A stretch of 64,000 nucleotides of DNA from a virus. Positions 18,962 to 20,014 of the stretch are shown piece after piece. Both the position numbers and the translations under genes were made by a program. The stretch's first letter is position 1; the number at the start of each line of letters is the position of its first letter. The stretch covers positions 4,659 through 68,658 of the IMG/VR virus record IMGVR_UViG_3300012521_000003; one strand, 5' to 3'. The notes beneath the pieces were generated by a model. It was not told the origin of the DNA. It saw nothing but the letters and a program-made list of their open reading frames with translations, and did no database searches.

Positions 18962-20014
18962 TTAGTCAGCTTCGAACAACGCCTTATCGGATGGAGCTAA
19001 GCTCTCGTATGTATCAAAGGTAGGCCATTCATGCGGCCCATAGACTTTGATACCGAGCTGCTCTTCGAGAAGCTTAGGATCTGTGCAGGTCTCATTGAAC
19101 TCTGCGTATTCATTCGAGTCTGGGCAGGGATTGCGACCACACTCTTTGAAGAGACATCCGAACATCTCGGACAGAGTATAGGCTCTGTGATACTGACATC
19201 TACCAGCGTTGTCACAGCCGGGTTTAAGATATGAACCTAGGAGCGGGAACTTCTCGAATACTCGCTCCCGGTAGAGCCAAGCCGTCGCCACGGTGTCTTC
19301 CATTTCACAGAATTTCATTCGGTTAGCACAGACGCCAAGAAGGGCATTAAAGTTATAGCATACGGAGAAGCCATAGACAACATAGAGCGGGAGTACTGAT
19401 CTCGCTGCCTGCCAAGAAGCCTTACCAACATCTACGATATCCGCGTAGACCTTTTTCACTTTTTCCATAGTGTCTACTATGGATCTGAAATTACTATACT
19501 TGGCCAGGACCTTCTTATCCATATCTGTGAAGCCCTCAGGATCTTCAAAACCAAGATCCATAGCGTGCTTCATCTCAGCCTCGGTCGGCCAGAGGGCATT
19601 AGGTATGCGTATGTCACAGGCTTTCCAGTTATTATCCCTCATACCCTTTGCTGAGAATACAGCACCGATACGGGTACGTGCCAACTGGTCAAATGCGGCT
19701 CTTGACAGACCCTCTACTGCAAAGGTGAAGCTTACGGCCTCGAGAGCTAGAGGGAGTGCCTGTCTCTGAAGAACCGCTTTGATGACTTCAAACCTCATCT
19801 CAGGCGAGGTCTCGGACCACTTATTTATCCTGTCCCCCCAGCAGGATGTGGCAAGAACGTACATGGCCTTATAAGGGTTTGTCGGATAGTCTATGAGTTC
19901 AACAGTGATGCCCTCGACCCCTCTTTTGAACTCGGTCTTAAGCTCAGGAGACTGCGTAGGAAGGGTTCCCATCACCCTTCTCAGTTCTTCAATTTTGGTC
20001 TTCACGTCAGACAT
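18962..20014 (-). CDS. ThyX-fold flavoprotein with a non-canonical active site
   Basis: LEAVSFTFAVEGLSRAAFDQLARTRIG.VFSAKGMRD, AARSVLP, NFNAL...NR; Cys-rich C-terminus. Confidence 0.85.
   Translation of the reverse strand: MSDVKTKIEELRRVMGTLPTQSPELKTEFKRGVEGITVELIDYPTNPYKAMYVLATSCWGDRINKWSETSPEMRFEVIKAVLQRQALPLALEAVSFTFAVEGLSRAAFDQLARTRIGAVFSAKGMRDNNWKACDIRIPNALWPTEAEMKHAMDLGFEDPEGFTDMDKKVLAKYSNFRSIVDTMEKVKKVYADIVDVGKASWQAARSVLPLYVVYGFSVCYNFNALLGVCANRMKFCEMEDTVATAWLYRERVFEKFPLLGSYLKPGCDNAGRCQYHRAYTLSEMFGCLFKECGRNPCPDSNEYAEFNETCTDPKLLEEQLGIKVYGPHEWPTFDTYESLAPSDKALFEAD

Follow-up and report, generated by a model that had tools for sequence, protein, structure and literature searches.

A phage-only branch of the ThyX fold with a conserved predicted dUMP pocket and altered catalytic positions

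The window analysed here is a stretch of 64,000 nucleotides of viral DNA, positions 4,659 to 68,658 of IMG/VR record IMGVR_UViG_3300012521_000003, and the subject of this report is one of its genes, termed ThyXL, whose product resembles ThyX, the flavin-dependent thymidylate synthase (FDTS). Comparison of ThyXL with its homologs points to a large phage-only branch of ThyX proteins in which the pocket for deoxyuridine monophosphate (dUMP) is kept and the catalytic residues are changed. The reading that we favour, with a confidence that is about evenly balanced, is that ThyXL would be a neofunctionalised dUMP-binding flavoenzyme making a 5-substituted dUMP other than thymidylate (dTMP). The source record is 72.6 kb long, complete by CheckV, and belongs to a tailed phage that encodes replication and recombination proteins of its own, namely a family-A DNA polymerase, class II ribonucleotide reductase, RecA, RuvC, primase, DnaB-type helicase and ligase.

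The ThyXL start codon is preceded by an AGGAGG Shine–Dalgarno sequence 7 nt upstream of the ATG, and the protein matched the Pfam family Thy1 (PF02511) with 60.4 bits against a cut-off of 24.8. An AlphaFold2 model with 35 homologs in the input had a mean predicted local distance difference test (pLDDT) score of 91.6. VIA aligned it with Mycobacterium tuberculosis ThyX at Z 16.5, with a root-mean-square deviation of 3.2 Å over 212 residues, and Foldseek matched it to solved ThyX structures with a template modelling (TM) score by target of about 0.75 (E 1e-8). On this model, ThyXL has the ThyX (Thy1) fold. Against the NCBIfam thyX equivalog TIGR02170 the score was 42.2 bits, below the cut-off of 87.9. 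By structure, ThyXL falls within the ThyX superfamily, yet it fails both the sequence signature and the curated cut-off of that family. The plain annotation as ThyX, which is the JGI name for some homologs, was judged insufficient because ThyXL has neither the signature residues nor a score above the equivalog cut-off and coexists with a canonical ThyX.

Residues were mapped through alignments to the ThyX proteins of Helicobacter pylori, M. tuberculosis and Thermotoga maritima and to a second, canonical-type ThyX in the window; T. maritima numbering was taken from the tagged PDB chain. Every dUMP-holding arginine is retained, R87, R95, R97, R107, R172 and R199 of M. tuberculosis ThyX corresponding to R105, R113, R115, R126, R205 and R232 of ThyXL. 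In T. maritima numbering R78, R80, R90, R147 and R174 map to R113, R115, R126, R205 and R232, and Q75 and N163 are kept as Q110 and N221. The arginine equivalent to R232, Arg174, recognises uracil N3 and O4 (PMC8316439).

The RHR-x7-8-S signature of ThyX is absent, ThyXL reading R113-T-R115-x8-G124, and the catalytic Ser88/Tyr91 pair is absent as well, with Gly124 and Asp127 instead. The motif quoted in an earlier note on this DNA, FDQLARTRIGAVFSAKGMRD, covers residues 108–127 (window positions 19634–19693), and its counterpart in the canonical-type ThyX of the window is TDRGVTHELVRHRM-ASFAQESTRY. That note had read RHR as changed to RTR, His to Asp and RY to RD within an intact ThyX scaffold, and the alignments bear this out: H79 of the RHR motif maps to T114, the His of the (S/T)H(Q/E) motif to D109 and Y91 to D127 (Asp127-Asn128, following R126), while FTFAVEGLSRA was located at residues 96–106 and AARSVLP at residues 203–209. 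A further reading, Ser to Gly, holds with one refinement: the M. tuberculosis and H. pylori alignments place G124 opposite S88, but the loop is longer by one residue and an ungapped alignment to T. maritima gives K123. Under either alignment no conserved Ser lies near the Ser88 position, S121 being present in only 61% of homologs. Outside the loop, H178 is replaced by C236, and the His53 of the H-x25-28-RHR motif by Leu87, whereas canonical paralogs of the same phages retain GH(H/E). Koehn et al. 2012 reportedly found this His53 to stack on the folate, on the folate/NADPH side of the flavin. Ser88 and Tyr91 of ThyX have been described as 'strictly conserved' and critical, Y91A slowing methylene transfer more than 100-fold (PMC8316439, PMC11940539), and the Tyr acts as a lid shielding uracil C5 and flavin N5 from solvent (PMC6514825).

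Homologs numbered 244 by a word-indexed search and 273 (E <= 0.001) when 1.84 billion cluster representatives were searched exhaustively with HMMER; conservation was calculated from 161 distinct aligned full-length sequences, 31–73% identical to the query. Within the loop, R105 and R115 were conserved in 100%, Q110, R113, G124 and D127 in 99%, D109 in 98%, N128 in 97% and R126 in 96% of sequences. Elsewhere R205, R232 and E237 reached 100%, and L87 (159/161) and E92 99%. Position 114 varies among A, T, Q and S, with His in 3 of the 161, and a small subgroup has Lys for R126 and is without the conserved Cys set of the C terminus. The check on whether the variant motif recurs in homologs thus found it near-invariant, and because of its 96–100% conservation across 161 divergent homologs it is a fixed family trait and not drift. 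A pseudogene or drift was ruled out by these near-invariant motifs together with the strong ribosome-binding site.

In a marine subgroup (loci L034–L041), two tandem paralogs with complementary losses stand in for ThyXL (L034:9983-11502, L035:9974-11496 and L039:9989-11517). One paralog retains the G-x-R-D-N loop and WQSAR (R205), while R-x-R, R232 and the Cys domain are lost; in its partner the loop and R205 are lost, and R-A-R, RRLKFCEEE (R232) and the Cys domain are retained. As judged from the sequences, this arrangement implies a hetero-oligomer with composite active sites and, because the sets lost are complementary, the Asp-Asn loop and the old arginines would be jointly selected as a composite site. 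A group I intron was considered for the split genes, but Rfam found none, and they are two paralogous genes instead.

Inteins typically occupy functionally critical positions. Within the family they were found at differing sites in P0124, P0123, P0127, P0158, P0161, P0191 and L032:9932-11923, some of them carrying LAGLIDADG or HNH-type endonuclease parts. Independent insertions lie within the loop, between FS and SMGWRDN (P0124), and immediately before C236, with this Cys as the +1 residue (L032). The long homologs were rejected as informative domain fusions, their extra parts being inteins, and P0118 and P0109 have N-terminal extensions.

ThyXL is extended at both ends relative to the ThyX core. 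Structural matches of the model to ThyX begin at about residue 27–36, and R12, M15, G16 and T17 of the N-terminal extension are invariant in homolog alignment A1. The C-terminal extension carries the motif PGCDxxGxCQYH...FGCLFKECGR...FNETC with 5–6 conserved Cys; conservation was 96% for C273, 95% for C267, 94% for C292, 90% for C310 and 83% for C287, and C236, which precedes the extension, was likewise at 83%. Searches for the identity of this domain returned a weak CCCH zinc-finger resemblance alone (E ~1), and its ESM Atlas features led back to Thy1 clusters. The caution that similar tails occur in ordinary ThyX proteins applies to a short P-x-C-x5-C tail, present in the RHR/SxRY representatives P0266 and P0261, and not to FGCLFxxCGR...FNxxC, which is family-specific.

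Four divergent lineages (L001/L010, L011, L033 and L035) carry an intact canonical ThyX (132–159 bits in whole-record PF02511 searches) as well as ThyXL, and RHR...S-x-RY and the Arg174 segment were confirmed in each of these coexisting proteins. The canonical-type ThyX of the window covers only positions 11–153 of the 191-position Pfam profile. Its deletion is in-frame, TIVMKM running directly into RQIAIPL where L001 has VVTMNLREWRHFFKLRAIGTTGKPHPQMVEIAKPL, and orthologs are intact in L001 (L001:13460-14164) and L047. From the sequence, the deletion is probably inactivating.

The gene lies within a tightly packed minus-strand gene run (Table 1). Its surroundings were compared across 32 IMG/VR loci and 5 from other assemblies (37, or 38 with the window), using iterative profile searches seeded with the window's proteins, and co-occurrence was counted in ±10 kb windows and in twelve whole records. 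A core trio of ThyXL, a GxGxxG flavoprotein and a dUTPase-like domain fused to a haloacid dehalogenase (HAD) phosphatase stands side by side in nearly all loci with enough flank; in this window the fusion is represented by two separate genes, and both domains were confirmed. The GxGxxG protein had no Pfam match. Its AlphaFold2 model (pLDDT 90.7) was placed by Foldseek against the PDB in the two-domain class of FAD amine oxidases, renalase, protoporphyrinogen oxidase (PPOX) and UDP-galactopyranose mutase (UGM), with renalase as the best size-matched match (TM ~0.6), and nearly all ESM Atlas proteins related to it are viral. A complex prediction for ThyXL and this flavoprotein gave a score of 0.01, which counts neither for nor against a physical complex.

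Mini thymidylate synthase (TS) folds of 139–210 aa lie within 10 kb of ThyXL in 27 of the 38 loci, the window counted, and about 10 loci have the core trio without any TS fold inside 10 kb. The mini-TS proteins keep the catalytic Cys and have a much reduced folate-binding region, and in 21 of 22 distinct sequences the residue matching E. coli N177 is Asp, which supports the co-occurrence with Asp-type TS genes that the earlier note had proposed to look for. At the D169 position the two TS folds of the window have Glu (A) and Asp (B). In four other mini-TS (L027:7148-7618, L029:8599-9126, L035:6133-6651 and L039:9484-9960) Asn at D169 is combined with Asp at N177; D169N+N177D was shown experimentally by Lee et al. 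to mark flavin-dependent 5-hydroxy-dCMP synthases (PMC13326640).

A dNMP kinase was present within 10 kb of ThyXL in most loci and a dCMP deaminase in ~15. A uracil-DNA glycosylase (UDG) family gene, or a DNA polymerase (PolIII-alpha or another) with a fused UDG domain, was present in 18 of 37 loci, with no UDG-family gene in this window; a 2026 paper connects active UDG in polymerase fusions with phages whose genomes are T-modified (PMC13697223). Examples, sometimes inside the module, are L003:11469-13375, L004:4141-7941, L025:8151-8702 and L027:6116-6676. Two further observations concern single relatives. In the 107-kb relative L001 an aldo-keto reductase and a radical-SAM/SPASM protein flank the module directly upstream of ThyXL (L001:5551-7635), and in L003 a 93-aa protein directly downstream of ThyXL (L003:8947-9228) matched DUF1599, 'Nucleotide modification associated domain 1', with 25.4 bits, at the cut-off.

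Table 1. Positions in the window of ThyXL, its mapped elements and the genes discussed in the text
Feature	Position	Strand	Description
Second, canonical-type ThyX (RHR...STRY)	8720-9430	-	Pfam 97 bits; ~25 residues missing, Asn163-Arg174 segment included
dCMP deaminase	15831-16328	-	
Mini TS-fold B, 196 aa	16328-16918	-	Catalytic Cys, Asp at N177 position; its orthologs in other loci are the mini-TS of 139-210 aa
dNMP (thymidylate-kinase-like) kinase	16906-17394	-	
HAD phosphatase (NT5C-like)	17375-17968	-	Fused to dUTPase-like domain in most relatives
Candidate partner flavoprotein, 332 aa	17940-18938	-	GxGxxG ... GRFARW; two-domain FAD amine-oxidase/renalase/PPOX/UGM class
ThyX-like gene (ThyXL)	18962-20014	-	Intact open reading frame, 350 aa + stop codon, ATG at 20014
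C-terminal extension, residues 258-350 (~90 aa)	18965-19243	-	C267, C273, H276, C287, C292, C310
R232-M-K-F-C236-E237-M-E	19298-19321	-	Arg174 equivalent, then Cys at His178 position, new invariant Glu
Arg205 codon (WQAAR205SVLP)	19400-19402	-	T. maritima Arg147; kept in 161/161
Rewired substrate loop, residues 105-128	19631-19702	-	SR105AAFD109Q110LAR113TR115IGAVFSAKG124MR126D127N128; from alignments to canonical ThyX
Leu87 codon	19754-19756	-	T. maritima His53 position; canonical GH-E/H-xx-x-E replaced by LPLALE; mapped from E58=E92
N-terminal extension, residues 1-35	19910-20014	-	Outside ThyX core; family-specific LRxVMGT motif
TS-fold A, 218 aa	20026-20682	-	Catalytic PC, Asp at E. coli N177 position, Glu at D169
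dUTPase_2/MazG-like all-alpha NTP pyrophosphatase	20692-21354	-	

The combination of invariant phosphate- and uracil-binding arginines, R232 included, with neighbours centred on dUMP and dUTP (the dUTPase-like domain, dCMP deaminase and UDG) suggests that ThyXL acts on a uracil nucleotide as a working enzyme. The coexistence with canonical ThyX, the failure at the equivalog cut-off and the replacement of the methylene-transfer and lid residues argue that it is not simply a dTMP synthase, as do the second flavoprotein and the fused phosphatase, which have no place in plain dTMP synthesis.

Under the favoured reading, ThyXL would be a flavin-bound oligomer with active sites across subunits as in ThyX, binding dUMP against the flavin, with dUMP supplied by the dUTPase-like domain and the dCMP deaminase. 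Since Asp-Asn takes the place of the lid Tyr, and Leu that of the folate-side His, the reaction would not finish with a hydride reduction that yields a methyl group, and a different 5-substituted dUMP would be released. In the most economical version, water would add to the exocyclic methylene to give 5-hydroxymethyl-dUMP, with Asp127 as the base and the Tyr lid gone, in parallel to the change that turns ThyA into phage hydroxymethylases. A bolder version would attach a bulkier 5-alkyl group, with a non-folate aldehyde as the donor; ThyX is able to use free formaldehyde via a flavin carbinolamine (PMC8316439). A third version would reverse the last ThyX step on dTMP and hydrate the product, which would explain the coexistence with canonical ThyX. 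In each case the dNMP kinase of the cluster may pass the product towards the triphosphate pool, and the adjacent flavoprotein and the Cys domain, possibly with a metal, may handle redox chemistry or electrons.

Several points weigh against this reading. The retained dUMP-binding arginines are equally expected of a working dTMP synthase, Asp127 might just stand in for Tyr as the general acid, and the TS-fold enzyme of the module could itself make the modified pyrimidine. Several FAD contacts, which we take to be His79, Arg165, Asn169 and His178, are changed in ThyXL. ThyXL is also the sole ThyX-family gene, with no Asn-type ThyA, in complete or near-complete records such as L023 (direct terminal repeats, 100% complete), and in such records it could be the phage's source of dTMP. 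The S88A variant of ThyX is still active in vitro (PMC4913046), and loss of the Ser alone is not disabling. The claim that ThyXL is a neofunctionalised enzyme is supported against an ordinary dTMP synthase, by the canonical ThyX coexistence and the equivalog cut-off failure, more than against an unusual but working one.

Such an unusual, partner-dependent dTMP synthase is the first rival to be weighed, and we consider it unlikely, though not markedly so. Here Asp127 would replace Tyr91 as the acid, and reducing equivalents, perhaps also the one-carbon unit, would arrive via the renalase-like flavoprotein and the Cys/metal domain in place of direct use of NADPH and methylenetetrahydrofolate (CH2-THF), the His53/His79 features being lost. 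The cluster would then follow T4 logic, with a dCTPase/dUTPase, an Asp-type TS on dCMP, a dCMP deaminase, a dNMP kinase and a thymidylate synthase. This accords with the retention of Gln75 beside all the dUMP-binding arginines and with the residual activity of S88A, and the dCMP deaminase and dUTPase-like enzyme yield dUMP that needs a consumer. It likewise accords with the intact ThyXL beside a broken canonical ThyX in the window, and with several records, one of them complete, in which ThyXL is the sole ThyX/ThyA-type candidate. The Asp-type TS-fold neighbours are unlikely dTMP makers (PMC13326640), and renalase-class proteins bind NAD(P)H, according to PDB titles. However, two dTMP-making enzymes would be redundant in the at least four divergent lineages with an intact canonical ThyX, the Tyr lid and the His53 position are invariantly altered, the score lies far under the thyX equivalog cut-off, and the always-adjacent phosphatase fused to an NTP pyrophosphatase is without a role in plain dTMP synthesis.

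It is improbable that ThyXL acts instead on dCMP, as the earlier note had offered by way of example, or on the product of the Asp-type TS fold (5-hydroxymethyl- or 5-hydroxy-dCMP) in a flavin-dependent redox or transfer step. The presence of Asp-type TS folds at 27 of 38 loci, four of them with the signature of 5-hydroxy-dCMP synthases (PMC13326640), would fit such a substrate, and D109, D127 and E237 could pair with the cytosine amino group in the manner of Asp179 of T4 dCMP hydroxymethylase. Yet R232, whose equivalent recognises uracil N3/O4 (PMC8316439), is 100% conserved, the core trio lacks a nearby TS fold in ~10 loci, and the tightly linked dUTPase-like, UDG and dCMP deaminase proteins all concern uracil nucleotides. 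With the uracil-binding arginines invariant and the neighbours centred on dUMP, dCMP found no support as the substrate. ThyX enzymes can themselves oxidise NAD(P)H, and several FAD- and folate-contact residues are changed in ThyXL. Although 5-hydroxy-dCMP synthases also require reduced flavin (PMC13326640), a non-catalytic ThyXL, serving as a nucleotide-binding regulatory or scaffold subunit or as a flavin reductase for TS-fold or flavoprotein partners, is very improbable given inteins at substrate-binding sites and a substrate-binding set that is near-absolutely conserved and complementarily kept in the split paralogs, which points to catalysis on a bound nucleotide.

Compared with ThyX/FDTS (EC 2.1.1.148; PF02511; TIGR02170; TM0449, Rv2754c), ThyXL has the same fold, dUMP-binding arginines and Gln75, and probably shares the oligomeric cross-subunit design of the active site, as supported by the split paralogs. 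It differs in R-T/A-R, the longer loop, Gly, Asp-Asn, Leu (His53) and Cys (His178), and it alone adds D109, E237, the N-terminal motif and the 90-aa Cys-rich C-terminal domain; it is linked with a second flavoprotein and a phosphatase, and several phages carry it beside a canonical ThyX. Among neofunctionalised ThyX paralogs, only PolB of polyoxin biosynthesis (PDB 4P5A/4P5B), a UMP/dUMP C5-methylase that still methylates, has been characterised (PMC5954106). By overall fold, the only level compared, ThyXL is structurally as near to PolB as to ThyX (Z 15.7). PolB differs from ThyX mainly in sugar specificity, whereas ThyXL is phage-borne and lies in a DNA-precursor module, and we see no sign that ThyXL is part of the PolB branch.

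The neofunctionalised phage enzymes of the ThyA family work with a dedicated dNMP kinase and NTP pyrophosphatase (PMC13326640, PMC8989533). Among them, T4 dCMP hydroxymethylase, SPO1-type dUMP hydroxymethylase and RB69/DLP3 5-hydroxy-dCMP synthase follow a similar logic, in that nucleotide binding is kept, few residues are changed and a new C5 substituent results, but their fold and chemistry (Cys nucleophile, folate or FMN) are unrelated to those of ThyXL. We know of no ThyX-fold counterpart of these enzymes.

Variant ThyX proteins form a wider phage 'clade', which is our own grouping and corresponds to no curated family. It includes a THQ.VRTRIG...Q.GGRDNDW group, Pbunavirus proteins with RTR...ETSRA and Streptomyces phage proteins with RSR...SQRA, and in all of them His79 and the Tyr lid are lost and Leu or Ile stands at the His53 position. 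The 'ThyX-like thymidylate synthase' of Pbunavirus (PB1-like) phages and actinophages shares these features and the P-x-C-x5-C tail with ThyXL at only ~25% identity; it retains the Ser and the THQ His, has Ala after Arg where ThyXL has Asp-Asn, and is without FGCLFxxCGR and the N-terminal motif. In Pseudomonas phage R12 (Pbunavirus, LC472881.1) the RTR/Tyr-to-Ala ThyX with Cys tail has a homolog of the ThyXL-module flavoprotein 1.2 kb upstream of thyX (hmmsearch E 3e-11) and a HAD_PNKP phosphatase with a C-terminal helical domain just downstream. According to a 2025 preprint, ~25% of thymidines in the Pbunavirus phages F8 and 14-1, those in TG context, give way to 362- and 390-Da nucleosides whose biosynthetic genes are not known (PMC12191111). 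The R12 genes at L042:3627-4628 and 6961-7977, encoding the flavoprotein homolog and the HAD_PNKP phosphatase, are candidate genes for this hypermodification. As an analogy, Pbunavirus ThyX is a suggestive precedent for ThyXL chemistry, weakened by the distance of the relative and its different loop (ETSRA).

A broader proposal, which we regard as rather doubtful, is that ThyXL and the lid-less phage ThyX clade would be the missing entry enzyme of nucleotide-level thymidine hypermodification, acting via flavin-N5 iminium/carbinolamine chemistry. As a first option the exocyclic methylene would be hydrated by a flavin-dependent 5-hydroxymethyl-dUMP synthase that would also work anaerobically. 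As a second, dUMP would be coupled to a non-folate aldehyde, for example a sugar phosphate, the fused HAD phosphatase would remove the phosphate, and the UGM/amine-oxidase-class flavoprotein would be a redox or sugar-handling partner. The Pbunavirus masses fit this second option numerically and in no other sense, 362 being dU + pentose - H2O + 2H and 390 dU + hexose - H2O.

Bacillus phage SP-15 (KT624200.1; L053:6670-7911, L050), whose DNA contains 5-dihydroxypentyl-uracil made at the nucleotide level, has two ThyX-fold genes. It was rejected as a comparable system because SP15_130 is without the whole RHR loop. The first ThyX-fold gene is of T. maritima type with KYR for RHR and a large insertion, and SP15_130 (413 aa) adjoins a short-chain dehydrogenase/reductase (SDR) and a nucleoside 2-deoxyribosyltransferase; such neighbours occur in L006 too.

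All ThyXL contexts retrieved were phage or phage-like contigs of ~20–195 kb. No close cultured-phage relative was recovered, in that megablast of the cluster gave nothing and tblastn with three members of the family as queries reached, among 50,697 phage records, at best 24–31.5% identity over <=75% of the query. A literature search found no paper describing this ThyX variant, and the MetaGPA paper makes no mention of Thy1.

To our knowledge ThyX is regarded as a single-reaction enzyme, with the exception of PolB, which is still a methylase. If the favoured reading is true, the ThyXL family would be the ThyX-fold counterpart of the ThyA-derived hydroxymethylases and 5-hydroxy-dCMP synthases. 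It could then explain precursor synthesis in phages with unexplained thymine modifications, as well as thymine modification without oxygen by anaerobe-infecting phages. The signature D-Q-x-x-R-x-R ... G-x-R-D-N could predict modified DNA in metagenomes; modified phage genomes, which are hard to sequence and restriction-resistant, matter for phage therapy and for the enzymes used in nucleic-acid chemistry. If the product is instead plain dTMP, Ser88, Tyr91, His53 and His79 would be dispensable, which would bear on the debated mechanism of ThyX.

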